Origin: a virus | Lineage: Duplodnaviria; Caudoviricetes | IMG/VR virus record: IMGVR_UViG_3300035670_000305 | Coordinates: 1-50,812 of that record | Direction: 5' to 3' (one strand) | DNA length: 50,812 nucleotides | Part shown: in pieces, positions 1 to 44,525 of the stretch | How positions within the stretch are numbered: the first letter of the stretch is position 1 | Layout of the letters: each line of letters starts with the position of its first letter | The notes under the pieces: model-generated | What the model was told of the DNA's origin: nothing | The model's input: only the letters and a program-made list of their open reading frames with translations | Database searches by the model: none | Position numbers and translations under genes: made by a program

Positions 1-287
1 AGAAGGGCAGCATAGCCGACTTTATGGCCAAGATGGCGCAGGCCGGTGCGACTGCCGCAAGTGCATCTGACGCGCGACTGAAGACCAATGTGGAAAAGGT
101 CGGCGTGTTGCCTGATGGCCTTGGCATTTACGAATGGGATTATCTGCCGATTGAAGGCCAGATTGCCGCATTCATGCCTGAAGGTCGCCAAACCGGCGTG
201 ATGGCGCATGAAGTTGCTGAATTGCGACCGTGGGCGCTTGGCCCGGTCATTGAAGGCTACGCAACCGTCGAATATGGGAGTCTGTAA
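1..287 (+). CDS. 3' part of gp7-like DNA ejection protein with C-terminal Peptidase_S74-type chaperone domain (5'-partial)
   Basis: SDARLKTNV motif; near-identical to C-terminus of 36284-37135; frame open to window start. Confidence 0.75.
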   Translation, partial: KGSIADFMAKMAQAGATAASASDARLKTNVEKVGVLPDGLGIYEWDYLPIEGQIAAFMPEGRQTGVMAHEVAELRPWALGPVIEGYATVEYGSL

Positions 288-929
288 ATGGCACTAGGTT
301 TCCAGCGGCAAGGCATCTTTGGCCGTCGCAATCCTATGGATATGCAGCCTCAATCGCAGGCAATGCCACAGGCTAACGCCATGCCCATAGGCGTCGAACA
401 AATCACCAAGAAGCCGGGCTTTTTCGGCAAGGATAGCGCGCTTTGGAAGGTGTTGGGAACGCTTGGCGATACGTTCAGTGACGGCCCGCCCATCTACACA
501 GAAAGCGTCCTACAGCAGCGCGATGCCGAAGAACGCGCCCGCATGGCGCAGCAGCAGCGTATGCAGAAGCGTGAGGACATGCAATGGGAATGGCAGAACA
601 AGCCGAAAGACGACAGCCCGAAAGACCAACTGACGCGCTTCATGGTTGCGGCAGGCATTGACCCGAACAGCCCCCGCGCTCGTGAATTGTATGCCCGCGC
701 CGTAGAAAACGAAGTCAACCCAATCCAAGCCGTGCCATTTACTGACGCGCAAGGAAATAGCGGGTTCCAGTATGTCCGCCCAAGCCAAATGCAGGGGACG
801 GCAGCGCCGACAAGCAAAGCCGAATATGACGCCTTGCCACCCGGCGCACAATATCGCGCACCAGATGGAAGCATCCGCACCAAAGGAGGCAGTGGCGGTA
901 ACGTCACTGGCGGGTTTCAACGCCCCTGA
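288..929 (+). CDS. Putative DNA ejection protein (P22 gp20 position)
   Basis: Synteny; Q/M-rich coiled segment; paralog of 37136-37765. Confidence 0.6.
   Translation: MALGFQRQGIFGRRNPMDMQPQSQAMPQANAMPIGVEQITKKPGFFGKDSALWKVLGTLGDTFSDGPPIYTESVLQQRDAEERARMAQQQRMQKREDMQWEWQNKPKDDSPKDQLTRFMVAAGIDPNSPRARELYARAVENEVNPIQAVPFTDAQGNSGFQYVRPSQMQGTAAPTSKAEYDALPPGAQYRAPDGSIRTKGGSGGNVTGGFQRP
885..918 (+). promoter_or_regulatory. GGAGG + GNRA-capped hairpin + GGG_TTT_C, candidate +1 frameshift signal
   Basis: 33 of 34 nt identical to 37724-37757; stem CAGTGGCG/CGTCACTG, loop GTAA. Confidence 0.6.
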
Positions 930-1233
930 TTTCAACCCAATCAACAGCCTTAAAGGTGCAGGCCTAACACCAACAAGCGGCTTCAGGACGCAGGCCCATC
1001 AAGAGGCTCTAATTCGCCAAGGCCTGACCACCACAAGGAACAGCGCCCACACGCGGGGCGATGCCCTAGACTTTGCCGTTCCCCAAGGAATGACAAAGGC
1101 GCAGGCAATTGAAATGGTTAAGCGTCAATATCCCGGCGCTCGTGCAATCCCGTCAAACGGCAACGCAATTCACGTAACCTTCCCCGGATGGGGCAAGGCT
1201 CCCGATGTAAGCAATTCACGCGGAAGGTATTAA
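892..1233 (+). CDS. Peptidase M15-family (D-Ala-D-Ala metallopeptidase fold) domain; start uncertain, may be expressed as a frameshift fusion
   Basis: TSGFRT, SAHxxGxAxD and HVTF motifs; paralog at 37731-38072; similarity to the paralog begins only at ~886. Confidence 0.7.
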   Translation: MAVTSLAGFNAPDFNPINSLKGAGLTPTSGFRTQAHQEALIRQGLTTTRNSAHTRGDALDFAVPQGMTKAQAIEMVKRQYPGARAIPSNGNAIHVTFPGWGKAPDVSNSRGRY

Positions 1234-1236
1234 TAG

Positions 1237-4086
1237 ATGCAAAACTGGTGGGAACAGGATAGCGTAGTTGAGCAAGGCGGCCAGCAGTCGAACACGCTTA
1301 TCACAAAGCGGGCAAACCCTATTGAACAGCAGGGCGCGGCGCTGAAAAACCAGCTAACGCAGGCGCAAATTCAAAAGACGCTTGATGATCTAAATAATGG
1401 CAACGAACCTAAATTGCCAACTGGCTATCGTTGGAAGCCTGACGGCACCGCAGAATTGATACCGGGGGTTGCTGCACCGGGAGCAGGCAATAAAGCAACC
1501 GCTGCACAGCGCACCGAGGCAATCCAAGGCTTTAACGATGCCGTGGCTTTGCGTAACATTGCCAAGCAACTTCGCGAGCGTTTTGAACAAGGGCCTGGTG
1601 CCACACAAGGCATTGCCGCACTTCAGGACTTTTTGCCTACCGCAGCCAATCGTGGCTTTGACACTGCCGCACAGCGCGCTCGCGGTTACGTCAAGCGCAG
1701 CCTTGGATTTACAGGCGGTGAGGGCAACACGGTCGCGGAAAGCACCACGCTTTACGATCCTTATCTGCCTTCAACGTCAGATTATGACAGTTCGATCCTT
1801 GATAAGATTGCGGCCCTTGAAGAACTGGCGGGCTTGGCAGAAGGCAAGGCAGTTGCGGTTCTTGGCGGCCGCCCTGACGCAAGCGGAAATGTTGTTCCTA
1901 TAACGCAGGATCAGGAAGCCCCAATGCTTGCCCCTGCTGGAAACACCCCCCCTGCTCCGCAAGGCCCTGACCGCAGCAATCCATTGCCCACCGGCCCTAG
2001 CTTTGGTGGCCCGCAAGGCGATCCTAGCGGCTTTGTTCCCTATGGCAGCACTACGCGCCGTGTGAACAATCCCGAATGGGCTGGCGTAAACGAAGCCGTC
2101 AAGGGCATGATTATTGCAGGCCAAACGCCTGATCAAATCCGTGCCTATCTCGGTCAGCGCGGCATCAACACCAATGTTGAAGGCTTGAACCAAGCGGCAG
2201 ACTATTTCCGCAAGACTGGCAAGCGTGACTTCCGCGTTAATGTGGATGATATTGAAGTTCCCATGTCGGGCTTTGAGCAATTCCGCAACAACGCCCCGCA
2301 GACTGCCGTAGGCGCAGGATTGACCACGGCGGCTAACGCTGCATCCTTTGGCATCCCGCAGGCGCTTGCACCGGAACAGATGCAATATATCCGCGACCAA
2401 AGCCCTGTTGCTTCCTTTGTGGGCGATGTGGCGGGTATCGTTGGCGCAACGTCAGGTATCGGCGCTGTTGGCAACTCGCTTGCACGCAGCCTTGCACCCC
2501 GCGCTTTGACTGGTGGCGGGCGTTTCGGCAATGCCGTTCGTTCGGTGGCCCCTGATGCGGCTTATGGCGCTGCTTATGGCGGCATTACTGAAGGCGACCC
2601 GCTGACCGGTGCTGCAACCGCTGCCGCTGGTTCTGGCGCTGGCCAGTTGCTTGGTAAGGGCATTCAGAAAGGCTTTCAGGGCGTTTCCGATCCTGCCGTG
2701 CAATATCTGACGGCTCGCGGCGTTCCGTTGTCCCTTGGCGAAACTTTGGGCAATAACAGCATTGTCGGACGCCAGATGCAACGCATGGAAAGCATCCCGA
2801 TTTTGGGTGACTTGATGAGCGCCCGTCGTGGCGAGGCAAGGGATGCAGTTTATCGCGGTGTTTTGGAAGACGCGGTGCAGCCCATCGGCGGCAGAATTGA
2901 CCCCGCAGACCCGCTTGCAAGCGCGCAGCAGGCCATTTCTGGCGCTTATGACAATGCCGTTGGCAATGTTACCGTTCCGTTTGATGCGCAGTATTTTGAC
3001 GAATTAGGCAATGTCCGCAATGCAGCTTCAACGCTTCCGCCCGACCTTAAGGGCAAGTTTGATGCAGCAATGGCAAGCCGTGTTGATCCTTTATTAGACG
3101 GAAACGGGGTGCGAATTTATCACGGCACAACGCCTGAAGCTGCACGTAATATTGAAACAAATGGCTTTGACCTTTCTAAATCAGCAGATGGGTCTGCGTG
3201 GTTTACAATCAACCCCAATATCGGCGAGGTTGCTGCCACTGGTAAAGGCGGGGTTGTCCAGCGAACAATTGACGAAAATCGCTTGAAACTGGGTGGCTGG
3301 AACGAATCAGATAAGTATTCAACTGACCAACTTTTACAACAAGGCTATGATGGGTTGAAATTTGTCGATGACGGGGCCGACACACATTACCAAATTTTCA
3401 ATCCTGAAAAACTAGTTCCAGCTAATCCTTTAATGACTGGTCAGCAATACCAACAGTCCATGCGCGGCCTTAGCGGTTACAAATCTGAAGCAACCAAGCC
3501 TGGATTTGAGCAAGACTATCGCGATGCCATCTCAATGGTTCAGGATGCGCTTAAAGGCCAGATGATGCGCGGTGGTGGCGATACGGTTGTAACCGGCCTT
3601 CGCAATGCAGACCAAGCCTATTCGATGCTCAAGCCGATCCAGAACGCGACAATAAGCGCAAGGGGAACGCCTACGCCAAAGCAGCTTCAAGCGGCATTCA
3701 CCACCAATACGAAGAAATTTGGCGGCGATGCAGCGGCGGCGCGTGGCGATAAAGTGCCTGATATTGTCCGCTATGCGGTGAACAATGCGCCAAACATCGG
3801 CAACAGCGGCACGGCGGATCGTCTTGCTGGAATTATGCCGTTTATCATGCCGACTGCACTTGGTGGCTCTGCTGTGGGCCTTGAAACCTTCACCGATAGC
3901 CCGTTCTTGACGGGTTCGCTTGCTACTTTGGCGGCCCTTTCCACACGAACCGGCCAAAAGGGAATGCAAACGGCGCTAGTTAAGCGGCCCGCCGCCGTCC
4001 GTCGCATCGGTGGCATCTTCGGGCGGCGGGAGACGCAAAAGGGGCTGGCTGGCATGGTAACAGCCCCCTTGCTCATCGAGCAGTAA
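1237..4086 (+). CDS. Large DNA ejection protein (gp16 position) with inserted ADP-ribosyltransferase-like domain
   Basis: 949 aa, Ala/Gly-rich, synteny; YHGT...GYDG...IFNP segment at ~3091-3432. Confidence 0.65.
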   Translation: MQNWWEQDSVVEQGGQQSNTLITKRANPIEQQGAALKNQLTQAQIQKTLDDLNNGNEPKLPTGYRWKPDGTAELIPGVAAPGAGNKATAAQRTEAIQGFNDAVALRNIAKQLRERFEQGPGATQGIAALQDFLPTAANRGFDTAAQRARGYVKRSLGFTGGEGNTVAESTTLYDPYLPSTSDYDSSILDKIAALEELAGLAEGKAVAVLGGRPDASGNVVPITQDQEAPMLAPAGNTPPAPQGPDRSNPLPTGPSFGGPQGDPSGFVPYGSTTRRVNNPEWAGVNEAVKGMIIAGQTPDQIRAYLGQRGINTNVEGLNQAADYFRKTGKRDFRVNVDDIEVPMSGFEQFRNNAPQTAVGAGLTTAANAASFGIPQALAPEQMQYIRDQSPVASFVGDVAGIVGATSGIGAVGNSLARSLAPRALTGGGRFGNAVRSVAPDAAYGAAYGGITEGDPLTGAATAAAGSGAGQLLGKGIQKGFQGVSDPAVQYLTARGVPLSLGETLGNNSIVGRQMQRMESIPILGDLMSARRGEARDAVYRGVLEDAVQPIGGRIDPADPLASAQQAISGAYDNAVGNVTVPFDAQYFDELGNVRNAASTLPPDLKGKFDAAMASRVDPLLDGNGVRIYHGTTPEAARNIETNGFDLSKSADGSAWFTINPNIGEVAATGKGGVVQRTIDENRLKLGGWNESDKYSTDQLLQQGYDGLKFVDDGADTHYQIFNPEKLVPANPLMTGQQYQQSMRGLSGYKSEATKPGFEQDYRDAISMVQDALKGQMMRGGGDTVVTGLRNADQAYSMLKPIQNATISARGTPTPKQLQAAFTTNTKKFGGDAAAARGDKVPDIVRYAVNNAPNIGNSGTADRLAGIMPFIMPTALGGSAVGLETFTDSPFLTGSLATLAALSTRTGQKGMQTALVKRPAAVRRIGGIFGRRETQKGLAGMVTAPLLIEQ

Positions 4087-4176
4087 TTTAGCTTTTCGGT
4101 GGTCGCGCCATTCGGCCCATGCGCCCCATGCAACGCCTATCAGGCCCTTTGCAAACATCGCGGCAAATAAATCCAT
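3976..4176 (-). CDS. Small antisense membrane protein, candidate superinfection exclusion factor
   Basis: MDLFAAMFAKGLIG matches MDYFLAFFAKGLIV at the equivalent site 40955-41050. Confidence 0.6.
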   Translation of the reverse strand: MDLFAAMFAKGLIGVAWGAWAEWRDHRKAKLLLDEQGGCYHASQPLLRLPPPEDATDATDGGGPLN

Positions 4177-4209
4177 AGCCGCTCAATAACACAAAATCGA
4201 AGCAACCCC

Positions 4210-4236
4210 AAGCCCTGCCTTTGGCGGGGTTTTTTC
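4210..4236 (+). terminator. Intrinsic terminator between ejection gene and tailspike
   Basis: GC hairpin AAGCCCTGCC-TTT-GGCGGGGTT plus T-run; conserved at 41084-41110. Confidence 0.7.
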
Positions 4237-4251
4237 GTTGAGGAAACGTGA

Positions 4252-5841
4252 ATGCCCATTTCTGATTACAGCACTTCAGCGGCGTCCAACACTTCGCTTG
4301 GCGGCATAGCTGTTGGCGAGAATATGGTTCGCAGCGATGTAAACAACGCCATTCGGCAGCTTATGGCCGACATTGCTGCCTACAAAACCGGCCTTGCCAG
4401 CATGAAAAGCGTGAAAGACCCGCCATATAATGCGGTGGGCGACGGCGTGACTGATGACACATCGGCAATTCAGGCGGCGATTAACGCAAATTCGCGCATT
4501 TTCTTCCCGCGTGGAAACTACAAAGTCAGCCAACTGGTTATCACCGATGCTTTCGGCAAAGAACTGATTGGCGAGGATCAGGAAACCTATATCCAAGGCG
4601 CAACTGCTGGAACGTCAATTATTCAGTTTGGCAAGCCAACTGGCGGCAGCGAAGTTGACCAAACCAAGCGCGCTCAATACTGCAAGGTTGCCAATCTGGC
4701 CATTTATGCAACGGCAGCTTACACTTATGGCATTGACTGCCAATGGCTAACAGACAGCTATTTTGAAAATGTAACGCTTTCTGGTGACTCGTTCATTGAA
4801 ACGGGAATGCGTTATGACTTCTCGTGGAATAACGACTTTTACCACTGCACCATTGCTGCTAAAAACGGCATTACCTTTGGCGCATTAAGCCCGAACCGCA
4901 CCACCTTCTTTGGCTTGCGTCTTGCGGGCGGCGCGCGCGGCGGCGTGGGCTTCAACGGCGCTGGCACGACCATCACGCTTGTTGGTGCTGACATTTCGGC
5001 ATTTGCAACAGGTGTTAAGTTCGACAATGGCGGCTTTGGCTTCTCGATTGTCGGAGGCTACTTTGAAAGCAACGGCGTAGACATTAGCCTTGGTGGCGGT
5101 GGCCTTAGAGGCGCTTCCATCACCAACAGCACCTTTCTTGCTGGAACCGGCTCTAACATCGCCATTCAGCAATCCGGCGCAAGTTCTGTTGAAGGCGTGA
5201 CTATTACCGGCAACGCTTTCCGTGACAAGGCGGATTGTGTCATTCTGACCAGCCTTACCTATGGATGGAACATTACCGGCAATGGCTACACGGGCGTAAC
5301 GCGGTTCATTACCGAGGGCGGATATTATCACAACATAGACGAACTTGACGGGCGTTATCAGCTTTATGCCGGGATGCTTGACTTGTCGGGTGTAACCGGC
5401 ACGAATGGAGGGCAGATCAAGTTTCCTGCATCGCCTAACCTGTCGGCAAATGCTTCCACGCTTGATGCTTATCTGGAAGGAACTTTCACCCCTGTTGTTG
5501 CAGGATCATCAACGGCGGGCGCTGGAACTTATTCAACGCAGGCGGGAACATATACCCGCATTGGTAACAGGGTGTTTTTTGACATCGCGCTGACGTGGTC
5601 GGCCCATACGGGAACAGGCAACTTACTTGTAACCGGCCTGCCTTTCACATCGGCAAACAGCGAGCCGGTGTCTGTTATCACCGCTTATGTTGATGGCATG
5701 ACCATCACGGGGGAAGCCCACTTTATTGTCAACCAAAACGCAACCAATGCACAGGTTCAATCGGTCAACAACGGAACGGCGGCTTCGCTTGCCCTCGATA
5801 CGGCGGCAACCTTGCGCGTTACCGGCAGCTATCGGGTGTGA
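4252..5841 (+). CDS. Tailspike / receptor-binding protein with beta-helix (pectate lyase 3-like) domain
   Basis: AVGDGVTDDTSAIQAAIN motif, beta-helix-like repeats, C-terminal EGTFTP/YTRIGNRV; first ~42 aa shared with 41125-42489. Confidence 0.8.
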   Translation: MPISDYSTSAASNTSLGGIAVGENMVRSDVNNAIRQLMADIAAYKTGLASMKSVKDPPYNAVGDGVTDDTSAIQAAINANSRIFFPRGNYKVSQLVITDAFGKELIGEDQETYIQGATAGTSIIQFGKPTGGSEVDQTKRAQYCKVANLAIYATAAYTYGIDCQWLTDSYFENVTLSGDSFIETGMRYDFSWNNDFYHCTIAAKNGITFGALSPNRTTFFGLRLAGGARGGVGFNGAGTTITLVGADISAFATGVKFDNGGFGFSIVGGYFESNGVDISLGGGGLRGASITNSTFLAGTGSNIAIQQSGASSVEGVTITGNAFRDKADCVILTSLTYGWNITGNGYTGVTRFITEGGYYHNIDELDGRYQLYAGMLDLSGVTGTNGGQIKFPASPNLSANASTLDAYLEGTFTPVVAGSSTAGAGTYSTQAGTYTRIGNRVFFDIALTWSAHTGTGNLLVTGLPFTSANSEPVSVITAYVDGMTITGEAHFIVNQNATNAQVQSVNNGTAASLALDTAATLRVTGSYRV

Positions 5842-5843
5842 CC

Positions 5844-6044
5844 ATGAGGCCGCATCACATTCTTGACCATCTGGGCGATGGCGCAAAGCATCTATTGGAC
5901 ACAACTGCGGCATTTGTCGCCTTGGGGGCGCTGGTGAAGTTACTGCCGTCTATTGCTTCATTCCTGACGATTATATGGATGCTGCTCCGAATTTACGACT
6001 GGATAGAAGCCCGATGGCAGGGCCGCACGCCTTCAGGGGATTAG
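5844..6044 (+). CDS. Small membrane protein, holin-like
   Basis: Hydrophobic helices; near-identical to 42489-42689. Confidence 0.55.
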   Translation: MRPHHILDHLGDGAKHLLDTTAAFVALGALVKLLPSIASFLTIIWMLLRIYDWIEARWQGRTPSGD

Positions 6045-6139
6045 CCTTTGCGGCTGCCGTCCTGATGATGTGGCACCAGCCAAACTTCACGCTTTTTCTG
6101 TTTCTGGCGTTCGTTTTCGGGCGCGCAAGCAAGGGGTAG
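6014..6139 (+). CDS. 41-aa membrane peptide MAGPHAFRGLAFAAAVLMMWHQPNFTLFLFLAFVFGRASKG (not in ORF track)
   Basis: Same start, stop and length at 42659-42784 with conservative substitutions. Confidence 0.7.
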   Translation: MAGPHAFRGLAFAAAVLMMWHQPNFTLFLFLAFVFGRASKG

Positions 6140-6141
6140 TT

Positions 6142-7116
6142 ATGCCTGCCAATGAAAAGGTTACACGCGAACAATTTGCCGCCTTATGGGAACGGCACGG
6201 ATCGGCAAGGATAATTGCCCAACATCTTGGAATTGATATTTCCAATGTCCACCAGCGGCGTCGGCGTATGGAAAAAGAGGGTTACACCTTCGCCACAAGG
6301 CCAGCGCCGGGATATGAAAAGCACACACCGATTTTAGATACTGGCTGGACGTTCCCCCGCGAAATCCAGCACGAAATTCAAGACGGCTGCGTCATTGTTT
6401 CCAGTGACCACCATTATTGGCCTGACATTGTAACCACGGCGCACATTGCCCTGTTGAATGTTTGCAAGGCCCTAAAGCCCAAAGCCAAAATCTTGAACGG
6501 CGATATTTTTGACGGGGTGTCAGTGTCCCGCCACCCGCCTTTCGGTTGGTCTAGGCGTCCATCTGTTCGCGAAGAACTGGAAGCCTGTCAGGAACGGGTT
6601 GCCGAGATTGAAGCGGTATTGCCCAAGGGCTGCCAACGGTTGTGGAGCATCGGCAACCACGACATCCGCTTTGAGCGCGTTCTAGCGCAAAACTCCCCCC
6701 AATATGAAGGGCTGCCGGGATGGCGGCTAGAAGACCATTTCCACGGTTGGAATTTTGCTTGGTCGCATTTGTTCAATGCTGATGGCGTCCACCCTGTGAT
6801 GGTCAAGCACAAGCATGCTGGCGGCGTCCATGCGGGCTATAACAACACCATGAAGGGCGGGGTTACGATTGTAACCGGCCATACGCACCTTTTGGAAGTC
6901 AAGCCTTGGGGTGATTACCGTGGAAGGCGCTACGGCGTCCAGACAGGCACGATCACGGCTCTGGACGGCCCACAGACCGAATATCAGGAAAATGCGCCTC
7001 CTACGGCCTGTCCGGGCTTTGTGGTGCTGACATTCAAAGACGGTGACTTGTTGCCGCCCGAACTTTGCGAGGTTCGCGGTGACAAAGCCTTTTTCAGAAA
7101 TGAGCAGGTGGCATGA
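6142..7116 (+). CDS. Calcineurin-like metallophosphoesterase with N-terminal HTH-like segment
   Basis: SDHH, NGDIFD, GNHD, GHTH motifs; start reassigned to ATG 6142 after AAGGGG. Confidence 0.8.
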   Translation: MPANEKVTREQFAALWERHGSARIIAQHLGIDISNVHQRRRRMEKEGYTFATRPAPGYEKHTPILDTGWTFPREIQHEIQDGCVIVSSDHHYWPDIVTTAHIALLNVCKALKPKAKILNGDIFDGVSVSRHPPFGWSRRPSVREELEACQERVAEIEAVLPKGCQRLWSIGNHDIRFERVLAQNSPQYEGLPGWRLEDHFHGWNFAWSHLFNADGVHPVMVKHKHAGGVHAGYNNTMKGGVTIVTGHTHLLEVKPWGDYRGRRYGVQTGTITALDGPQTEYQENAPPTACPGFVVLTFKDGDLLPPELCEVRGDKAFFRNEQVA

Positions 7117-7169
7117 ACGAAGCTGTTTTCTTTTCAAACGTCCGTGCGGGCATCCTAGGGCCTAAGTAA
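7113..7169 (+). pseudogene. 18-codon remnant of the endolysin 5' end (MNEAVFFSNVRAGILGPK)
   Basis: Aligns to N-terminus of 7712-8323 (VFFSAVRSGLLGPK); ATGA-coupled to upstream gene. Confidence 0.75.
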
Positions 7170-7662
7170 CGTGCCGCCAAAGCCGACCAGATTTTATGCG
7201 GCAATAAGTGGATACGGCGATGCCGTATTCTGGTGCGGCAATCGTGCTGCTTCGTTGGTCAGCTTTTATAGCGCGAACAATATCTGGGTTCAATTTTGCG
7301 TTGACGTTCTTTTCGCCAAATTGAACTGTGCCGTGATTAATCGCGTCTGCCGCATTAGATTTTGGGTCGCCCCAATAAAGATTCTCTGGCGTGTTGTTAA
7401 GCGGGTTGCCGTCCTTGTGGCAGGCCATCGCTGTTGGCTCAGGCGGACAACCAATAAACGCTTCGGCAACAAGGCGATGCACCGACGCAGATTTAATCTT
7501 GCCTCCGCTGCAAATAGACACTTGCGCCCTGCCGTTTCGCTTAATGCTTTGAACCAGAACCCGCATCCGTCTTCCGCAACGGTCTGGAGTGGTTCTTTTT
7601 ATCCTCCCGAGATTGGACGCGGAATATTCCGGAGCGCTCGGGATAATTTTCCAAATTTCCAT
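7162..7662 (-). CDS. NUMOD4-HNH homing endonuclease with C-terminal HTH
   Basis: EIWKII/YSASNLGRIK (NUMOD4), VHRLVAEAF...HKDGNPLNN..NL (HNH_3), AKLN...WRHV tail. Confidence 0.9.
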   Translation of the reverse strand: MEIWKIIPSAPEYSASNLGRIKRTTPDRCGRRMRVLVQSIKRNGRAQVSICSGGKIKSASVHRLVAEAFIGCPPEPTAMACHKDGNPLNNTPENLYWGDPKSNAADAINHGTVQFGEKNVNAKLNPDIVRAIKADQRSSTIAAPEYGIAVSTYCRIKSGRLWRHVT

Positions 7663-7668
7663 TCTTGC

Positions 7669-7697
7669 AACATGACACGAAACGTCATGGATGTCAA
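7669..7697 (-). promoter_or_regulatory. Promoter for HNH gene with palindrome in the spacer
   Basis: TTGACA (7697-7692), 17 bp, CATGTT; inverted repeat CATGAC-N7-GTCATG at 7671-7689. Confidence 0.55.
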
Positions 7698-7711
7698 CGC
7701 TGGGGGTCTAT

Positions 7712-8323
7712 ATGTCATTCAATATTAGCGTATTTTTTTCCGCCGTCCGCAGCGGGCTTTTGGGGCCAAAGCTAGATGAGGGGGAGGTAAATGGCTGTGA
7801 AGCCATACTTGAAGCGATGGCGGGAATGCCAGTCTCTTGGGCCGCGTATGCCCTTGGAACAGCTTACCATGAAACAGCGCACACCATGCAGCCTATTAAG
7901 GAATATGGCGGGCCGAAATATTTTACCCGCATGTATGACATAACCGGCGCGCGGCCCACGATGGCCAAAAAGATGGGCAACACAACGCCAGGGGACGGGC
8001 CGAAATATTGCGGGCGCGGTTACGTCCAGCTTACTTGGCGCGTAAATTATGCCCTTGCCGGTGATAAGCTGCGTGTTGATTTGGTGAACGATCCAGACTT
8101 GGCAATGAATAAAGACATTGCCGCAAGCATCATGCGGGAGGGCATGAAGGCGGGCTGGTTCACTGGCAAGAAACTGGCGGACTATCTGCCAAACGGCACA
8201 GCAACGCTTGCCCAATTCAAAGCGGCGCGCCGGATCATAAATGGCACGGACCGCGCAGAACTTATCGCAAGCTACGCGGTCCAATTTCAGGAAGCACTTG
8301 TTGCAGCGGAGTGGGGCAAATGA
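7712..8323 (+). CDS. Endolysin, glycoside hydrolase family 19-like
   Basis: AYHET, YCGRGYVQLTW..NY, ARRIING motifs. Confidence 0.85.
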   Translation: MSFNISVFFSAVRSGLLGPKLDEGEVNGCEAILEAMAGMPVSWAAYALGTAYHETAHTMQPIKEYGGPKYFTRMYDITGARPTMAKKMGNTTPGDGPKYCGRGYVQLTWRVNYALAGDKLRVDLVNDPDLAMNKDIAASIMREGMKAGWFTGKKLADYLPNGTATLAQFKAARRIINGTDRAELIASYAVQFQEALVAAEWGK

Positions 8324-8568
8324 GCGCCGAAATCATCACGCTGTTTGAAACGAACTGCGCCGACATTCCATCAATGCTGCGCGGCACGGCTGACAACATC
8401 GAAGCGGAAACCGATGAGCATGTTCGCACGGAAAGCATCATCTGCGTTCAAATCCATGAAAACGGCGATCTGCAAGTTTACGGATGGGGCCGCACCGATA
8501 CGCACCAGTGCATAGCCAATCTTGAAATTGCCAAGCACCAGCTAATCCAAGGGATTTATGATGTTTGA
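8320..8568 (+). CDS. Conserved hypothetical protein in lysis cassette
   Basis: Paralog of 44522-44770. Confidence 0.7.
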   Translation: MSAEIITLFETNCADIPSMLRGTADNIEAETDEHVRTESIICVQIHENGDLQVYGWGRTDTHQCIANLEIAKHQLIQGIYDV

Positions 8569-8824
8569 CCTGACAACACCAGACGGGCGCAGGGCTGCCG
8601 CCTTTGCCGCCATATTGGGTGGCTGTTTTACAATGACCGTCTTTGCAGCCTTTGGCGTGTATATCGTTCGCAAGGACGCTGGCTTGTCGTTCTGGCTGGC
8701 CTTGGCTGCCCATGCTCAAATTACGCTTGGCCTGTCTGCCTTTACCGCTCTCTTTGTGAAGCGGTCTATTTCCGTTGGCAAAGATGGCGTGACCATTGAA
8801 GACAAGCAGAAGGGCGACAAATGA
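8558..8824 (+). CDS. Putative holin (2 TM)
   Basis: Two hydrophobic helices, charged C-terminus, between endolysin and spanin. Confidence 0.55.
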   Translation: MMFDLTTPDGRRAAAFAAILGGCFTMTVFAAFGVYIVRKDAGLSFWLALAAHAQITLGLSAFTALFVKRSISVGKDGVTIEDKQKGDK

Positions 8825-9327
8825 TAGCCCTAATCGCAAACTATAAGCGCATCATATACGGCACGGCCTTAGCCCTGCTTGGCACGTTGCTACTGGTGCA
8901 GACAGCCCGGATAGAGGGCTTCCTTTTCTGGGATGGCCTGAAGGCTGAAAACACCGCCCTTCGCGAAACCGTGGCAAGCATCAAAGCGGCACAGGAGCAG
9001 GCAACCAAACTAGCCATTGCCGAAAAGAAGCGCATTGAACAGGACAACGAAAGGAAGGCACAAGATGCCCGCGAACTGGAAAAGAAACTGCGTGTTGACT
9101 ATGACCGCCGCCTTGCTGGCTGGCTGCGCGCACAAGCTGGAAGTAACACCGGCAACGCCAATCTGTCCAAAACCGGCGAAGCCACCAGCGGAATTGATGG
9201 AGAAGGTCGATCTGCCTTCGTTCCTGAAGGATACGTTCTAACGCCTATTCGGGATTTGGAGTTGAGCGCACAGGCTTTTGCGAAGCTAGAGGCTTGGCAG
9301 GCTTGGGGGCGTTCGTTGTCTGAATAA
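8821..9327 (+). CDS. Rz: i-spanin (Rz-like)
   Basis: N-terminal TM plus coiled coil; embedded lipoprotein gene. Confidence 0.75.
   Translation: MIALIANYKRIIYGTALALLGTLLLVQTARIEGFLFWDGLKAENTALRETVASIKAAQEQATKLAIAEKKRIEQDNERKAQDARELEKKLRVDYDRRLAGWLRAQAGSNTGNANLSKTGEATSGIDGEGRSAFVPEGYVLTPIRDLELSAQAFAKLEAWQAWGRSLSE
9065..9241 (+). CDS. Rz1: Embedded o-spanin lipoprotein (Rz1-like)
   Basis: LLAGC lipobox, Pro-rich, nested in +1 frame; conserved at 45441-45623. Confidence 0.8.
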   Translation: MPANWKRNCVLTMTAALLAGCAHKLEVTPATPICPKPAKPPAELMEKVDLPSFLKDTF

Positions 9328-9496
9328 GCAACTCAACAGCAACTTGCACGGGGCCGGGAATGTCACCGGTAAAGTCATCGCTTTCCCATTTGCTGATTGA
9401 TTGCCAGCCCCAATTGCCCATACGCAAAACCTTGGCCATCTCCTTTTGAGAGAGGCCAAGGGCTTTGCGGGCGGTGCGGAAGTCAGCGGGGGTCAT
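9245..9496 (-). CDS. XRE-type HTH regulator
   Basis: MTPADFRTARKALGLSQKEMAKVL...SKWE; paralog 48830-49057. Confidence 0.8.
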   Translation of the reverse strand: MTPADFRTARKALGLSQKEMAKVLRMGNWGWQSISKWESDDFTGDIPGPVQVAVELLIQTTNAPKPAKPLASQKPVRSTPNPE

Positions 9497-9782
9497 TGGC
9501 GTCCTTTTGTTTTTTCCAATTCTCAAACTCCGCAAATGCGCCTTCTAAATCAGCCCTGCACGAACTGCACTCATTGCCCGAACCTTCGGGAACTATAGCG
9601 CCACAGTAGCAACACCATTGTGGGGAGACGGCAGCGCAAAACCTGCGCGCCCTCTGTAATGTTTTTGCATCATCGCCAGTTGAAAATATTAACGCGACTA
9701 AACGGCCCTTGTCGGTTTTGACCAAAACGTCACCGTTGCACGGCCCTTCTCGATCAAGGTCAAAAGTCCAAGGCGCGCTCAT
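9483..9782 (-). CDS. Hypothetical protein with CxxC...CxxC zinc ribbon
   Basis: CCYC and CSSC; TGATG-coupled to upstream gene. Confidence 0.6.
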   Translation of the reverse strand: MSAPWTFDLDREGPCNGDVLVKTDKGRLVALIFSTGDDAKTLQRARRFCAAVSPQWCCYCGAIVPEGSGNECSSCRADLEGAFAEFENWKKQKDANDPR

Positions 9783-9901
9783 CAGAACGCAACCTTTGCT
9801 TTGGCTACGGGCAACCAGCGCAAAGCGCGAGGCGACCAATAGAAAAACTTGCCGTTTGATTTTTTTGCTTGGTAGGTCTTGCCGTTAATGGTGGCGGTCA
9901 T
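9782..9901 (-). CDS. 39-aa basic peptide MTATINGKTYQAKK...
   Basis: AGGAG RBS; first gene after a TTGACA promoter; identical at 49343-49462. Confidence 0.7.
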   Translation of the reverse strand: MTATINGKTYQAKKSNGKFFYWSPRALRWLPVAKAKVAF

Positions 9902-9944
9902 CTTACTTTCTCCTGCTAAGGCGGGGTCAATCCCCATAAACAGA

Positions 9945-9987
9945 CAGGTAAATGATTCCGCATTGCATGTCAACAATAAACGGAATC
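9945..9987 (-). promoter_or_regulatory. Cassette promoter with inverted repeat
   Basis: TTGACA at 9973-9968, flanked by GATTCCG (9954-9960) and CGGAATC (9981-9987). Confidence 0.55.
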
Positions 9988-9997
9988 TTTTTCCGCA

Positions 9998-11002
9998 TTA
10001 ATTCGCTTCCCATTTCCCCATCGCCCGCTTTGCCGACTTGCGCTGGTTATGCTTGCGCGAATAATGCTCAATCATCCGCAATGACTGGCCAGTGATGGCT
10101 TTGACTTCCTGTATTGAGCAGCCTGCCTCTAGCAGCGTTCCAACGGCGTTCTTGCGTAGCCCGTGGGGTTTATAGCCCTTTGTCCATTTCATGATCCGCA
10201 TCCGCAGCGCCTCGGCTGTTAGCGGCTTGCCATTGGCTTGGCATAGGATGGTGGTTAAGCCCTTTGGATATTCGGCAAGGATTGCTTCCAGCTTGCTATG
10301 GATTGGCAGCCAAAGTTCCGGCGTTCGCTTGTGGGGCGGAACGTATATTTCCCCATCCTTGATGTCTTGCCAGCGCATCCGCACGACGGCCCCAATCCGC
10401 TGGCCTGTGTAATAAAGCAAGGCGACGGGCAAACGCAGTTCAGTCTTTAGCGCCGCCTCAATCAAGGCTTCTGGCCAAGGTTCATGCTCAGCCGCTTCGT
10501 GGTCAATCCGCATGTCTTTTGTCGGATCAAAGTCAGGTGGCAGCTTGTCGTTTTCGCGGCCATATCGAAACAGCGTTCTAAGCACGGCAAGCTGCATCTT
10601 TTGTGCGCCATAGCCTTGTTGCTCTAACAGTTCGCGAATATCGGGGCGGGTGATCTTTGTGACTGGCCAGCTACCGCGCTGCAAGTCGGTAAATTCATCA
10701 AGCAGCTTGTTTAGATATATGACATAGGTGTCTTGCGTGGATTGTGACCGCTTCTTGAAACTGTCGCTAGTCTGATAAGCCTTCACCAGTTCGGCAACGG
10801 TGTAAATTCGTTCGCGATTGTTGCGCTTGGTCTTGATTGCCAGATAGGCCGCAAACTTCGTTCCAAATTCCGGCGAACGCGGATCGGGCAAAGGGCGCAG
10901 CAATTGCTTGCCTTTGTGAAACTCGCCTGTCTTGAAATAAGCGTAACGCTTACCCTTGGCAGTTACGAATTTTATATGCTCTGCAAACGGCCCTTTTGCC
11001 AT
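9998..11002 (-). CDS. int: Tyrosine integrase
   Basis: YTGQR, HGLR, TGQS and IEHY catalytic motifs. Confidence 0.92.
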   Translation of the reverse strand: MAKGPFAEHIKFVTAKGKRYAYFKTGEFHKGKQLLRPLPDPRSPEFGTKFAAYLAIKTKRNNRERIYTVAELVKAYQTSDSFKKRSQSTQDTYVIYLNKLLDEFTDLQRGSWPVTKITRPDIRELLEQQGYGAQKMQLAVLRTLFRYGRENDKLPPDFDPTKDMRIDHEAAEHEPWPEALIEAALKTELRLPVALLYYTGQRIGAVVRMRWQDIKDGEIYVPPHKRTPELWLPIHSKLEAILAEYPKGLTTILCQANGKPLTAEALRMRIMKWTKGYKPHGLRKNAVGTLLEAGCSIQEVKAITGQSLRMIEHYSRKHNQRKSAKRAMGKWEAN

Positions 11003-35914: not shown

Positions 35915-36291
35915 CTTTCGGCTATGTCCCGTCACCAGCGGCGGGACAGTGGCAGAAGGCTTTGGGCTATTTGAAGCCAGCCCTCGCACGGGGCGGTTAC
36001 ACTTGGGAAGAATGCGCCAAGCTGATTGATAGCGGACACGCTCAACTATGGATGAGTGATGAGGCTGCGCTGGTTAGCCGCCGCGATGGCGACACATTGG
36101 AGCTTTGGCTTTGTGGTGGGCGCGTTGTGAATGCGTCTGACAAATATCTGGCGGTCATTGAACGGGCCGCAAAAGAATCCGGCATGAAGTGGATGAGAGT
36201 AACGGGCCGCAAGGGATGGGAGCGCCATCTTAAGCGGTTCGGTTGGGTGCGTGTTGGTGAGGATTTGATGAAGGACATTGCAAATGGGTAA
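35911..36291 (+). CDS. GNAT-like virion assembly protein
   Basis: WLCGG, GRKGWER.L; precedes the ejection genes. Confidence 0.55.
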   Translation: MTFGYVPSPAAGQWQKALGYLKPALARGGYTWEECAKLIDSGHAQLWMSDEAALVSRRDGDTLELWLCGGRVVNASDKYLAVIERAAKESGMKWMRVTGRKGWERHLKRFGWVRVGEDLMKDIANG

Positions 36292-37135
36292 GACGAAGAC
36301 TGTTCAAAAGAACGACCCGTGGGCACCAGCCCAGCCATATATCTTGAAGGGGCTTCAACAGTCGGGCGAAGTCTTTGACCAGCAGCAGCCGACGCTTAAC
36401 AAATATTCCGGTATGCAGATGGACACCTATGGCCGCGTTGCGCCTGGGGCCGAAGCTGGAATCATGGGCGCGCAAGGCCTTGTCAATGACACGCTTGCTG
36501 GTCGTTATTTGAACGGCAACCCGTATCTTGACGGAATGCTGAACCGCACCCGCGATAGCGTCTCGGATCGTGTCAACAGCAACTTCTCGCTGGCTGGCCG
36601 TTACGGCTCGGATTACCACACTGGCGAACTAACCCGCCAGCTTGCCGACGCTGAAAACCAGATGCGCTTCCAAAACTACGCAATGGAGCGCGGCTATCAG
36701 AACGACGCTGTAGGCCAAGCCCAGCAGCTTATGGGCGGCAGCCAAGGCCTGCTTAACAATGCCGCTGAATTGCCTTGGATCGGCGTTGGTGCATTGAATG
36801 GCAACGTCCGCAACGCATCGGGGGGTTATGGCACGACCACCACCACGCAAAAGCAGGACATTGGCGGTTTGCTTGCACAGGCAGCAGGCACGGGCCTTGG
36901 CGCTTATGCTGGATCAGATGCGCGCTTGAAAACCAATGTTGAGAAAGTTGGCGAACTGCCTGACGGCCTTGGCATTTACGAATGGGATTATCTGCCGATT
37001 GAAGGCCAGATTGCCGATTACATGCCTGCCGGACGCCAGCGCGGCGTGATGGCTGATGAAGTGGCTGAACTGCGTCCGTGGGCGCTTGGGCCTGTCATCG
37101 AAGGCTATGCAACCGTAAACTATGGAGCGTTGTAA
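36284..37135 (+). CDS. gp7-like DNA ejection protein with C-terminal Peptidase_S74-type domain
   Basis: MGK..T, PW.PAQPY, GNPYL, AGRYGS, SDARLKTNV. Confidence 0.75.
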   Translation: MGKTKTVQKNDPWAPAQPYILKGLQQSGEVFDQQQPTLNKYSGMQMDTYGRVAPGAEAGIMGAQGLVNDTLAGRYLNGNPYLDGMLNRTRDSVSDRVNSNFSLAGRYGSDYHTGELTRQLADAENQMRFQNYAMERGYQNDAVGQAQQLMGGSQGLLNNAAELPWIGVGALNGNVRNASGGYGTTTTTQKQDIGGLLAQAAGTGLGAYAGSDARLKTNVEKVGELPDGLGIYEWDYLPIEGQIADYMPAGRQRGVMADEVAELRPWALGPVIEGYATVNYGAL

Positions 37136-37765
37136 ATGGCACTAGGCTTCCGAACTGGCGGCATGTTTGGCCGCAAGCCATCATACGAACGCCAGCCTTG
37201 GGACACCCCTGGCATTGGCGACGGCTTCAATCAGCGCATGGCTGAAATGGGCGATGTCAATCCTTCTGCAATGCCCATTGGTGTTGAGCAGATGACCCAA
37301 AAGCAAAGCTTTTTTCAGCGACCCGGCGTGAAAACGGCTGCGGGTATTTTGGGTGACACGTTACTAACGCTTGGCGGCGGTAAACCCATGTATGCGCCCA
37401 TGATGCACGAACGGCGGATGCAGGAAGAAGATGCACGCTTACGTCAACAACTTGCCCAGCAGCAGCGTATGCAGGCGCGTGAAGACTTGCGCTGGAAATG
37501 GGCCAATGAGCCGAAGGATAACAAGCCCGATCAGCTTACTGAATGGATGATAAGCGCAGGAATTGACCCAAGAAGCGAACAAGGCCGCGATGTGTATCGC
37601 AAGGCAGTGGAAAACAAAGTCAATCCACCCGTCTGGCGACAAGGGCCTGATGGTAATTTTTACCGTGTGGATACTCCGCAGGGCGGCTTGCCGACCTTTA
37701 CTGATGACGACTGGAACAAGGCGGGAGGCAGTGGCGGCAACGTCACTGGCGGGTTTCGGCGCTGA
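37136..37765 (+). CDS. Putative DNA ejection protein (gp20 position)
   Basis: Paralog of 288-929. Confidence 0.6.
   Translation: MALGFRTGGMFGRKPSYERQPWDTPGIGDGFNQRMAEMGDVNPSAMPIGVEQMTQKQSFFQRPGVKTAAGILGDTLLTLGGGKPMYAPMMHERRMQEEDARLRQQLAQQQRMQAREDLRWKWANEPKDNKPDQLTEWMISAGIDPRSEQGRDVYRKAVENKVNPPVWRQGPDGNFYRVDTPQGGLPTFTDDDWNKAGGSGGNVTGGFRR
37724..37757 (+). promoter_or_regulatory. GGAGG + GNRA hairpin + GGG_TTT_C, second copy
   Basis: Loop GCAA is the only difference from 885-918. Confidence 0.6.
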
Positions 37766-38072
37766 CTTTAACCCAATCCCCGCGCTTCAAAAAGCAGGCT
37801 TTACGCCAACAAGTGGCTTTAGGACTGAAAAGCACCAAGCGGCACTTTTTGCGCAAGGTTTAACGCCAACAAAAGGCGGGGCGCATGTTCGCGGCGACGG
37901 TTTGGATTTTGCCGTCCCGCAAGGAATGTCCAAGGACGCAGCAATCGAAATGGTCAAGCGCCAATACCCTGGCGCAAAAGTCATCAAGTCCAATGGCAAC
38001 GCAATTCACATCACTTTCCCCGGATGGGGCAAGGCTCCTGATATAAGCAATTCTCGCGGAAGGTATCGCTAA
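37731..38072 (+). CDS. Peptidase M15-family domain; start uncertain
   Basis: TSGFRT, GAHxxGxGxD, HITF. Confidence 0.7.
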   Translation: MAATSLAGFGADFNPIPALQKAGFTPTSGFRTEKHQAALFAQGLTPTKGGAHVRGDGLDFAVPQGMSKDAAIEMVKRQYPGAKVIKSNGNAIHITFPGWGKAPDISNSRGRYR

Positions 38073-42786: not shown

Positions 42787-44019
42787 ATGCCTTATGTCGA
42801 TCCTAAACTCTACGACTATTGCGACACCGAGAAGCAAAGGGAAACGCTAAGATTATTAGACGAACTCGGCAGCGGGAAACTTGTTGCCGAGGCAATGGGA
42901 ACGCACCGTTCGCTCCCGCAAAAAACACTGAAGCTACTTAAAGAAAAAGCTGCGCGGCGGGGCTACGCGCCTGAAGCCAGCATCAACCATCCGATTGCGG
43001 AAGGCTTCACGCTCAAAGGCTATTCGCATTTCACCCAAACAGCCGATGGCCGCCCGATCTGGATTAAGGCCGAAGCCCTGCGCCAGCAATGGGCTAGCGC
43101 CATTGTCGAGGCGATTGAGAACAGGCCCGAACGGCAGCTAGACATTCCCCCGCCGCGTCCCGTCACCTTTGATGGCCATGATATTATCCCGTGGCTGAAT
43201 ATCGGAGATGCCCACATCGGGATGTTAGCGCATCACGATGAAGTCGGGGCTAACTTTGACTTGAAAATCGCGAAGGCGGAAATTCTGCAAGCCGCTTTCG
43301 ATCTAATCGACATGGCCCCCGATTGCGAACGCATGGTCATTAACGACCTAGGCGATGGCACTCACTACGAAAACATGAAGGGCATGACCGAGCGCAGCGG
43401 CCACCAGCTAGACTTTGACAGCCGCTTTCCCAAAATGATTGATGCCTATTTGGACATTATGGAAAGCATCATCGAGAAGGCCCTTCGCAAGGCTGAAACG
43501 GTTGATGTAATCATAAACCAAGGCAACCATAGCGAGACGAACGACTATTGGGCAGCGCGCTATTTCAGGCGTCTATATGCAAGGCTTGGCAACAACCGCG
43601 TTCACGTTCTCCAGAATGAAAGCCCGTTCATTGCCTACCGCATGGGCAAGACGCTGGTGTTGGTGCATCACGGCCATAAGGTAAAGCCAGAGCGCCTGCG
43701 CGAAATCCTGTCAACCGACTTTGCGCTTGACTGGGGCGAAACAACATTTCGCTACATTGATGGCGGGCATATCCATCACTTTAGCGCCAAGGAACTAGCG
43801 GGCGCTGAATGGTGCAGCTTCAACAATCTCGCGCCGATGGACAAACATGCCCATGACGGTGGCTGGCGCTCCAAGCAGGCCATGACGCTGGTTTTGCGCT
43901 CTCGCTCCTATGGCGATGTCGGACGCTACAAAATGCCGATTGAGAAGGTCTGGGATCGCATCTCGGCAAAGAACCCCGAACACTACGTTCCCGAACCACG
44001 AAGGGCGTTTGCAGCATGA
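42787..44019 (+). CDS. Metallophosphoesterase-fold protein
   Basis: GDAHIG, LGD..H, GNHS, HHGH, GHIHH. Confidence 0.8.
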   Translation: MPYVDPKLYDYCDTEKQRETLRLLDELGSGKLVAEAMGTHRSLPQKTLKLLKEKAARRGYAPEASINHPIAEGFTLKGYSHFTQTADGRPIWIKAEALRQQWASAIVEAIENRPERQLDIPPPRPVTFDGHDIIPWLNIGDAHIGMLAHHDEVGANFDLKIAKAEILQAAFDLIDMAPDCERMVINDLGDGTHYENMKGMTERSGHQLDFDSRFPKMIDAYLDIMESIIEKALRKAETVDVIINQGNHSETNDYWAARYFRRLYARLGNNRVHVLQNESPFIAYRMGKTLVLVHHGHKVKPERLREILSTDFALDWGETTFRYIDGGHIHHFSAKELAGAEWCSFNNLAPMDKHAHDGGWRSKQAMTLVLRSRSYGDVGRYKMPIEKVWDRISAKNPEHYVPEPRRAFAA

Positions 44020-44525
44020 ACAACAACTTTGAACATTGCCTTGACCTAGTGCTAGTCCACGAGGGCGGCTATGTGAACCATCCGAAAGACCCCGGAGGCG
44101 CTACCAACAGGGGCGTTACGCAAGCGGTTTACGACGCCTATCGCAAAACGCGGGGCAGGGGCGCGCAATCGGTCAAGTTCATCACCGATGATGAAGTCAA
44201 GGCAATCTATAAGTTCCAGTATTGGGACAGGGTGCAAGCTGATCTGTTGCCTGCTGGCCTTGACTATGCCGTGTTTGACTTTGCCGTCAATTCAGGAGTG
44301 GGCAGGGCGTCCAAGTATCTCCAGGCGGTGCTAGGCGTGGCACAGGACGGCGTTATAGGCGCAAAGACGCTGGCAGCTATCCAATCCCCCCGCAACACGA
44401 TTAACGCGCTGTGTGACCGCCGTATGGCTTTCCTGCGTAATCTGCGAACGTTCCTTACATTCGGCAAGGGCTGGACGCGCCGCGTTCAAGATGTGCGCGC
44501 TCATGCTTTGGAGATGGCATCGTGA
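44016..44525 (+). CDS. Endolysin, glycoside hydrolase family 108
   Basis: HEGGYVNHPKDPGGATNRGVT, FDFAVNSG, FGKGW.RR. Confidence 0.92.
   Translation: MNNNFEHCLDLVLVHEGGYVNHPKDPGGATNRGVTQAVYDAYRKTRGRGAQSVKFITDDEVKAIYKFQYWDRVQADLLPAGLDYAVFDFAVNSGVGRASKYLQAVLGVAQDGVIGAKTLAAIQSPRNTINALCDRRMAFLRNLRTFLTFGKGWTRRVQDVRAHALEMAS

Follow-up and report, generated by a model that had tools for sequence, protein, structure and literature searches.

The virus record IMGVR_UViG_3300035670_000305 of the IMG/VR collection, analysed here over its whole length of 50,812 nucleotides (nt) and referred to below as the window, raises the question of how a small M15-type cell-wall peptidase is expressed from an open reading frame (ORF) that overlaps the end of a virion-module gene in the +1 frame. 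The window holds two related phage units in tandem, each with one copy of this locus, copy A (288..1233) and copy B (37136..38072). Our reading, to which we assign a probability of about 0.85 from sequence comparison, is that the locus carries a programmed +1 ribosomal frameshift cassette, in which an internal Shine-Dalgarno (SD)-like GGAGG, a hairpin and a UUU_Y slip site (Y, pyrimidine) would append the peptidase to the virion-module protein. An arrangement of this kind had been put forward for copy A and its counterpart in the second phage unit from inspection of the DNA (the original prediction), and we assessed it against related loci, natural fusions and published recoding systems.

The core of the cassette is a 34-nt string, GGAGG-CAGTGGCG-GYAA-CGTCACTG-GC-GGG-TTT-C, which occurs exactly twice in the window (885-918 and 37724-37757), with zero occurrences expected from 100 shuffles. 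The two copies differ at one loop base and nowhere else (GTAA in copy A, GCAA in copy B), a change that keeps a GNRA tetraloop, as the original prediction had pointed out. It had also described a shared end on genes with divergent C-terminal regions, and this proved accurate: the upstream proteins of the two copies are 50 % identical, and their C-terminal thirds are unrelated until a common GGSGGNVTGGF, which is followed by two to three residues. In both copies the peptidase ORF does lie downstream in +1, and the 0-frame stop comes 2-3 codons after TTT_C. RNAfold predicted the hairpin of copy A, with a modest z-score of -2.0 for the 71-nt context, and Rfam covariance models gave no matches at E<=1 between window positions 700 and 1300. 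A reading of the hairpin as an intrinsic terminator was rejected: a terminator scan reported none, and no T run directly follows the GC-rich hairpin, only three T being present 5 nt past the stem. Copy B contains a second in-frame TTT_C (37313-37316, codon 60 of the ORF 37136..37765) with no cassette around it; the gene thus tolerates the tetranucleotide outside the cassette as well.

Homologous loci were expected, under the original prediction, to keep TTT_C invariant and the downstream ORF always in +1, and the comparison bore out both expectations closely. Using a peptidase profile, we took the best 80 of 108 IMG/VR loci plus three genome loci. In all, 85 junctions were examined; after removal of 24 exact duplicates, 61 unique junctions remained, comprising 59 split loci and two distant loci with other architectures (L086, L087). 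The peptidase lay in +1 relative to an upstream ORF of 190-360 amino acids (aa) in 58 of the 59 split loci, and all 58 had an in-frame TTT followed by C (51 loci) or T (7 loci). The 0-frame stop followed TTT by 0-4 codons, and in seven loci it occupied the A site itself (TTT_TGA or TTT_TAA; six if L015 is anchored on its upstream TTT). The codon preceding TTT varied (AAC 27, ACC 15, GGG 9, ACA 5, GGC 2). TTT was present at the slip position in 58/58 loci versus a background TTT use of 0.11-0.85 in the same genes, and GGA at the SD codon in 57/58 versus a background share of 0.06-0.45 among glycine codons, although products of these codon frequencies are not probabilities because the loci are related. 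GGAGG stood 25 nt from TTT in 47 loci and 28 nt from it in nine; the remaining two are L040, in which GGGGG takes its place, and L015, for which the script had used a second TTT as anchor. A hairpin was predicted between GGAGG and TTT in the +1 loci.

The geometry of these elements was examined in a wider set of 102 unique cassettes, in which TTT_Y (102/102) belonged to the definition. GGAGG was present in 101 of them, the gap between it and the stem was 0-1 nt, that between the stem and TTT was 4-5 nt, and the stems were of 7-10 bp with 19 distinct 5'-arm strings. The 28-nt form places its additional codon in the loop, so both flanks are fixed relative to the base of the helix and not linearly to each other. 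Compensatory changes in the stem, a further expectation of the original prediction, were found in two alignments, a 4-nt-loop group (A7; 13 sequences, 11 distinct) and a 5-nt-loop group (A8; 35 sequences, 30 distinct). In A7 100 % of 88 cells pair, seven of the eight pairs show double changes and the covariation score was reached by 0/500 shuffles, with registers slid off the true position pairing at just 15-66 %; in A8 98.8 % of cells pair, with double changes in four of eight pairs. RNAalifold, run from -44 to +75, recovered the cassette hairpin and otherwise only a 2-bp pairing about 50 nt downstream, which is invariant in one group and nearly so in the other and displays no covariation. 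The peptide encoded over the hairpin is variable (SGGNVTGG, TSGNAGGT, ASSNASGG, PAAPQPGG, QTATPSGN and others), with base pairing retained throughout. Taken as covariation evidence, these patterns indicate that the hairpin is selected as RNA.

Natural fusions of the two parts provided a separate view of the junction. A search for longer relatives returned 14 matches, 12 of which are single ORFs running from an upstream-type N-terminal part through GG-x8-F into the peptidase, as in P0126 (...AGGAGSNASGGF-RGTAINPISDL...); the remaining two are split forms with an insert of about 100 aa following the Phe. When copy A is read with a single step at the slip site (TTTC=F), it gives a 314-aa product with the predicted junction peptide ...GGSGGNVTGGF-NAPDFNPINSLK. 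Residues 174-314 of this product align with the natural fusion P0131 at 62 % identity, without a gap at the junction, and the alignment of P0126 to it begins exactly at Phe210. Further fused representatives span 339-620 aa. The sole fused gene that could be read as DNA, L115 (= P0133), has a stem decayed to about 4 bp and TTT followed by G; this single case fits a loosening of constraint after the frame has become hard-wired. Searches for the DNA of in-frame fusions gave none in metagenome contigs (queries A4 and A5), genome contigs (P0125) or viral contigs (A4), and viral contigs searched with P0131 returned L115 again and nothing else.

The cassette is not tied to one peptidase. The exact 34-mer of the window recurs in a second IMG/VR contig (L119), where it closes a 311-aa ORF; the ORF that follows in +1 encodes an M15_3 peptidase unlike that of the window (30.5 bits). 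A freshwater variant of the cassette was then used as a DNA pattern, and 80 of the 104 matching stretches gave 64 unique loci, each with a long 0-frame ORF, a stop no more than eight codons past TTT and a +1 ORF of 80-124 aa counted from the Phe. The +1 ORFs of this variant comprised the window-type M15 peptidase (37 loci), other M15_3 types (L134, L163, L180 and L185, all over the Pfam cut-off), an SLT lytic transglycosylase (L161 at 27.1 bits and L165 at 39 bits, cut-off 21.3) and an unassigned 'TSGYRGP' type with weak phrog_894 matches in PHROGs; comparison of the SGYRGP-type domain with the peptidase profile by hhalign was not significant (E 0.13). The freshwater variant was also present in prophages of Sphingopyxis bauzanensis (strain DSM 22271, L225) and of a Cellvibrionaceae metagenome-assembled genome, and a further cultivable lysogen with a cassette is Pelagerythrobacter marinus H32 (L085). 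As a negative control, a degenerate pattern without the complementarity requirement produced five genome matches, none of which had a strong hairpin of at least 7 bp beside GGAGG or the ORF arrangement. The same cassette thus precedes unrelated muralytic domains, always in +1, and is portable. Coordinates of the elements in the window are collected in Table 1.

Table 1. Elements of the two cassette loci in the window (positions on the window, 1-based)
Element	Copy	Position	Strand	Remarks
Upstream 0-frame ORF	A	288..929	+	213 aa, ends GGSGGNVTGGFQRP; virion-module protein, no known family
Internal SD-like GGAGG	A	885..889	+	Codons GGA GGC; conserved in relatives
Hairpin	A	890..909	+	Arms 890-897 / 902-909, GTAA loop 898-901; 8 bp, one G-U
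Proposed +1 slip site TTT_C	A	915..918	+	Phe210; proposed tRNA-Phe re-pairing UUU -> UUC; TTT 915-917, C 918
0-frame stop TGA	A	927..929	+	3 codons past TTT
+1-frame M15-type peptidase part	A	916..1233	+	Predicted trans-frame product 314 aa
Upstream 0-frame ORF	B	37136..37765	+	209 aa
Internal SD-like GGAGG	B	37724..37728	+	
Hairpin	B	37729..37748	+	GCAA loop 37737-37740
Proposed +1 slip site TTT_C	B	37754..37757	+	0-frame A-site codon CGG; stop TGA 37763-37765
+1-frame M15-type peptidase part	B	37755..38072	+	Predicted fusion about 311 aa, counted from coordinates

Several other explanations for this arrangement were weighed. The peptidase could be a separate gene, with GGAGG as its ribosome-binding site, a start at GTG 892 or at a codon in or after the hairpin, and a hairpin that throttles or bridges initiation in the manner of a split ribosome-binding site. 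We regard this as improbable, even though GGAGG is a perfect SD, an equivalent of GTG 892 exists in both window copies and in L005, gene callers and NCBI place starts in the region, and L006, L010 and L011 have a GTG or ATG in or just past the hairpin. The original prediction had correctly singled out GTG 892 as the sole conserved candidate start in the window, but it lies just 2 nt after GGAGG and within the 5' arm of the stem. Moreover, no start position is conserved among the loci: 14 of the 58 (and 17 of the 102 cassettes) lack any ATG, GTG or TTG between the upstream stop of the +1 frame and a point 36 nt past TTT, the +1-frame start codons found elsewhere are scattered and differ between lineages, and in the freshwater group the +1 codons from SD to Phe read GAG GTC AGA CGG ... 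CGT CTG GCA ACT TTC, with no canonical start. The claim that the peptidase ORF has no usable ATG is one of judgement: ATGs do exist in the +1 frame upstream of TTT, at -50, -89 and -143 nt in copy A and at -50 and -104 nt in copy B, but by eye none is preceded by an SD, and their positions are not kept across loci. A separate gene would further leave the invariant in-frame TTT_Y, the constant +1 frame and the Phe-joined in-frame fusions unexplained. Termination-reinitiation, whereby ribosomes would end the upstream ORF at its stop and restart in the peptidase frame with help from the SD, seems to us rather more improbable. The stop does lie within 0-4 codons of the point where the conserved peptidase region begins, and L006 has TGA-T-ATG, yet in most loci no start codon lies close to the stop, conservation of the peptidase sequence already sets in at the Phe, ahead of the stop, and the position of the stop shifts from 0 to 8 codons whilst TTT_Y stays fixed.

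A more passive origin of the pattern would be recombination, or a peptide linker (GG-x8-F), between modules, with a hairpin that acts in mRNA stability or processing and a peptidase that is poorly or incidentally expressed. Such a reading could draw on the joining of the same 34-mer to at least six upstream contexts and two peptidases, on the GG-x8/9-F with which 95/106 upstream homologues terminate, whatever precedes it, followed by 0-5 residues, and on the in-frame L115, which keeps GGAGG and its spacing. We consider it very unlikely, given that the peptide between GG and F varies freely while the pairing persists, that the downstream domains retain invariant catalytic-type residues, and that a constant +1 relationship across five domain classes is not expected of decaying or incidental ORFs. 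Least likely of all, in our estimation, is recoding of another kind, by a -2 shift, hopping or transcriptional slippage. A -2 shift would yield the same frame as +1, and one locus (L025, C_CCT_TTC) suggests that the site can be rebuilt for -1; nevertheless, polymerase slippage would need a longer run than three T, and re-pairing of tRNA-Phe two bases back, on GGU, ACU or CCU, is impossible in most variants.

Some observations do count against a programmed +1 shift. In the window's subgroup a GTG is present in the 5' arm, and NCBI annotates a start of this kind in Pelagerythrobacter, such that independent initiation may contribute there to some extent. L115 retains GGAGG at the 25-nt spacing in spite of its in-frame fusion, and the in-frame P0126, P0146 and P0233 have peptides that a retained hairpin could encode, so these elements may serve another purpose. 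The usual 0-frame A-site codon is CAA, which is common in these phages and offers no hungry codon; a hungry-codon explanation was rejected for most loci on this ground. L025 (2472-2520), the only exception among the 59 split loci, has its peptidase in -1: its sequence, ...AAT CCC CCT TTC GGG GGG TAA, places a C_CCT_TTC heptamer inside a C5/G6 hairpin and has no standard cassette hairpin, and the locus may represent a genuine -1 variant, an in-frame fusion obscured by a homopolymer error or a product of decay. Many of the loci are close relatives, phylogenetically clustered, and the counts given above are not counts of independent events. Lastly, the original prediction had likened GGAGG to the internal SD of prfB. 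An SD is indeed present, but 25-28 nt from the slip codon and not 3 nt, so its role cannot simply be borrowed from that system.

Under the programmed frameshift, ribosomes on the upstream virion-module gene would reach the in-frame UUU and its following pyrimidine, where in a fraction of them the peptidyl-tRNA-Phe (anticodon GAA) would let go of UUU (G-U wobble) and pair again one base further on, with UUC or UUU. Shifted ribosomes would go on to read about 104 codons in +1, which encode the small M15-type peptidase, and unshifted ribosomes would terminate 0-4 codons later. Each phage would hence make two products, a short one of 213 or 209 aa and a fusion of 314 or about 311 aa with a muralytic domain. 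The original prediction had proposed a slip of tRNA-Phe from UUU to UUC that gives the 314-aa fusion beside the 213-aa product, and the comparison supports it; the analogy it drew with influenza PA-X need not be invoked, as UUU_Y is a known bacterial +1 site. A lone TTT_C at codon 60 without a cassette, together with the common A-site codon, makes it unlikely that the slip site alone is sufficient, and the 5' elements are thus candidate stimulators. Most likely, the shift is promoted by two such elements of fixed geometry, GGAGG, which is able to pair with the anti-SD of 16S rRNA, and the adjoining hairpin of 7-10 bp. Between the 3' end of the hairpin and UUU there are 4-5 nt, which leaves 1-2 nt between the hairpin and the E-site codon, and the hairpin may refold behind the ribosome and push it forward. 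GGAGG might act as an anchor or stack on the helix, might come close to the slip site through looping-out of the hairpin, or might pause the ribosome. The fusion would be packaged and would cut peptidoglycan during infection. Slippage itself and its efficiency, the refolding of the hairpin, the pairing of GGAGG with the anti-SD, and the packaging and cutting activity of the fusion are all points that we infer.

Several known systems come close to this scheme. In bacteria, UUU_Ynn is regarded as particularly prone to +1 shifting, a stop not being required, with Yersinia YopN-TyeA as an example of UUU_Y shifting (Atkins et al. 2016, PMC5009743). Such systems resemble the cassette in having a P-site Phe UUU followed by a pyrimidine, a one-base forward movement of tRNA-Phe, no need for an adjacent stop and two ORFs that become fused, but no conserved stimulator of SD plus hairpin is described for them in the part of that review available to us, whereas the cassette has a fixed geometry over about 100 phage loci. 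In prfB, which encodes RF2, the +1 site is CUU_UGA_C with an internal SD 3 nt upstream (PMC3711429). The cassette shares with it an SD-like sequence upstream of a +1 slip codon and, in seven of 58 loci, an A-site stop; it differs in its UUU in place of CUU, its usually sense A-site codon, the absence of autoregulatory logic, and the hairpin interposed between an SD at 25 or 28 nt and the slip codon. A prfB-type site, defined by CUU_UGA with an SD 3 nt upstream, is not what the cassette contains. Huang, Cho and Chang (2018) reported that a stable hairpin refolding beside the E site stimulates +1 and attenuates -1 shifting in E. coli lysate, and that an upstream hairpin is a functional mimic of the internal SD-anti-SD duplex on 70S ribosomes (PMC6321510). 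Their hairpins, like that of the cassette, are stable and stand near the E site, 5' of the slip site, but they are synthetic, act on CUUUGA without RF2 and replace the SD, whereas the cassette is natural and combines SD and hairpin on UUU_Y. The Listeria phages PSA, A118 and A500 have +1 frameshifts in structural genes (PMC5009743) and likewise yield two products, one of them extended at its C-terminus; the accounts given there involve a proline codon, a 3' pseudoknot or stop and a non-enzymatic extension, in contrast to the 5' stimulators and enzymatic extension of the cassette. The authors of PRFect state that forward shifts have no general motif (PMC10885494). We found no description of the cassette in the open-access main text searched, a body made up of CC-licensed PMC papers and bioRxiv preprints that included parts of the PRFect and GeneTack papers, and the natural layout of SD, hairpin and UUU_Y, as well as its use, appears to be undescribed.

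A bolder extension of the frameshift reading, which we hold tentatively and at somewhat less than even odds, is that the cassette represents a new class of natural stimulator. The hairpin would loop out 19-24 nt, such that the SD-anti-SD duplex and the helix come to lie together behind the E site (a 'hairpin-bridged' SD), and this would be the first natural case in bacteria of a +1 shift driven by an upstream hairpin. The cassette would then be a portable module, exchanged by phages of alpha- and gammaproteobacteria, which equips a virion protein, at a set sub-stoichiometric level, with any of several unrelated domains that cut the cell wall (M15 variants, SLT).

The gene for the upstream protein follows tail genes and a gene with a Peptidase_S74 chaperone domain; next comes the gene for a protein of 949/974 aa. 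It had been called a DNA ejection protein in the original prediction. Its place in the virion module agrees with that name, but no family was found in Pfam or PHROGs, PF16928 Inj_translocase (P22-type ejection protein gp7) had no match in the record at E<=10, and a profile of the protein gave only chance-level matches in PDB. A protein language model gave a weak lead to a P22-type ejection protein (0.84). The label is a guess, because gene position is its only basis. The preceding gene (3-287; 36278-37135) ends in the Peptidase_S74 intramolecular-chaperone domain, which is more usual on fibres and spikes, and matches PHROGs labelled 'DNA ejection protein' and 'virion structural protein'. The cassette also coincides with a mosaic boundary: upstream of the identical GGSGGNVTGGF-coding variant at least six C-terminal contexts occur that are unrelated to one another (IRTKGG, LPPKGG, WEKVGG, WNKAGG, LRPLGG and SPMGG, among P0137-P0241), and downstream of it two different peptidases, one of them in L119. 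Such mosaic joins suggest recombination at or in the cassette.

The +1 ORFs of copies A and B are 77 % identical. Copy A matches Pfam PF08291 Peptidase_M15_3 narrowly (23.8 bits, cut-off 23.2) and copy B has no match at E 0.01; across the family, 36 of 60 members match PF08291 at E<=0.01. The downstream protein also matches PHROG endolysin families, and a sequence search of PDB with the peptidase gave no match. Among the 60 sequences D60 and H94 are invariant and H53 nearly so, which fits the zinc-ligand motif of the clan, His-x6-Asp with a distal His. Other arrangements of the peptidase domain were also observed. In P0121 and P0122, split-type peptidase ORFs that start at a hairpin-encoded MAATSLAGF, the slip-site Phe and the peptidase are separated by an additional domain of about 100 aa (..DLFNRP..GSxSTVRSISIG..). 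In the in-frame P0246, P0247 and P0248 the peptidase domain is internal and a 'PPGxxYRAPDGSxR' motif, which lies upstream of the cassette in the window, is at the extreme C-terminus, a permuted module order. More distant relatives of the domain (L086 from Qipengyuania citrea; P0249-P0300) are in frame at the N- or C-terminus of proteins of 840-1800 aa, presumably large virion proteins.

With regard to genomic context, the first phage unit is represented by its right end only (about 1-9.4 kb of the window), and an integrase gene lies on the minus strand at 9998-11002; the window was divided into units at 1-11002 and 11003-50812. The second unit is nearly whole, with terminase, portal, scaffold, major head, tail and lysis genes from about 24 to 45 kb. 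Each unit has a separate endolysin gene (7691-8323 and 44016-44525), and the M15-type enzyme belongs to the virion module and not to the lysis module. No tRNA gene was found in the window, and GenBank phages gave no DNA or protein match to the window region. The two units may reflect either tandem prophages or a chimeric assembly.

Muralytic domains are built into known virion proteins such as T7 gp16. Together with the natural in-frame relatives of the locus (P0123-P0134, P0146, P0233 and P0243-P0248), such proteins resemble the putative fusion in that a peptidoglycan-cutting domain sits on a protein of the virion or ejection module, apart from the lysis endolysin. They differ from it in that the enzyme is on every copy, whereas recoding would make it optional and sub-stoichiometric.

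Few natural +1 frameshift signals are known from bacteria and phages, and what stimulates them is poorly understood, whilst the cassette described here is short, sharply defined and phylogenetically replicated. Its natural controls, namely in-frame fusions, stem variants and the 25- and 28-nt forms, make it a test bed for the action of 5' structures and anti-SD pairing. If the frameshift reading is true, a whole class of small 'orphan' ORFs for peptidases and transglycosylases would be mis-called in the annotation of phages and prophages, and would instead be C-terminal extensions of the preceding virion gene. The cassette further suggests that phages may tune the number of particle subunits that carry a wall-degrading enzyme.

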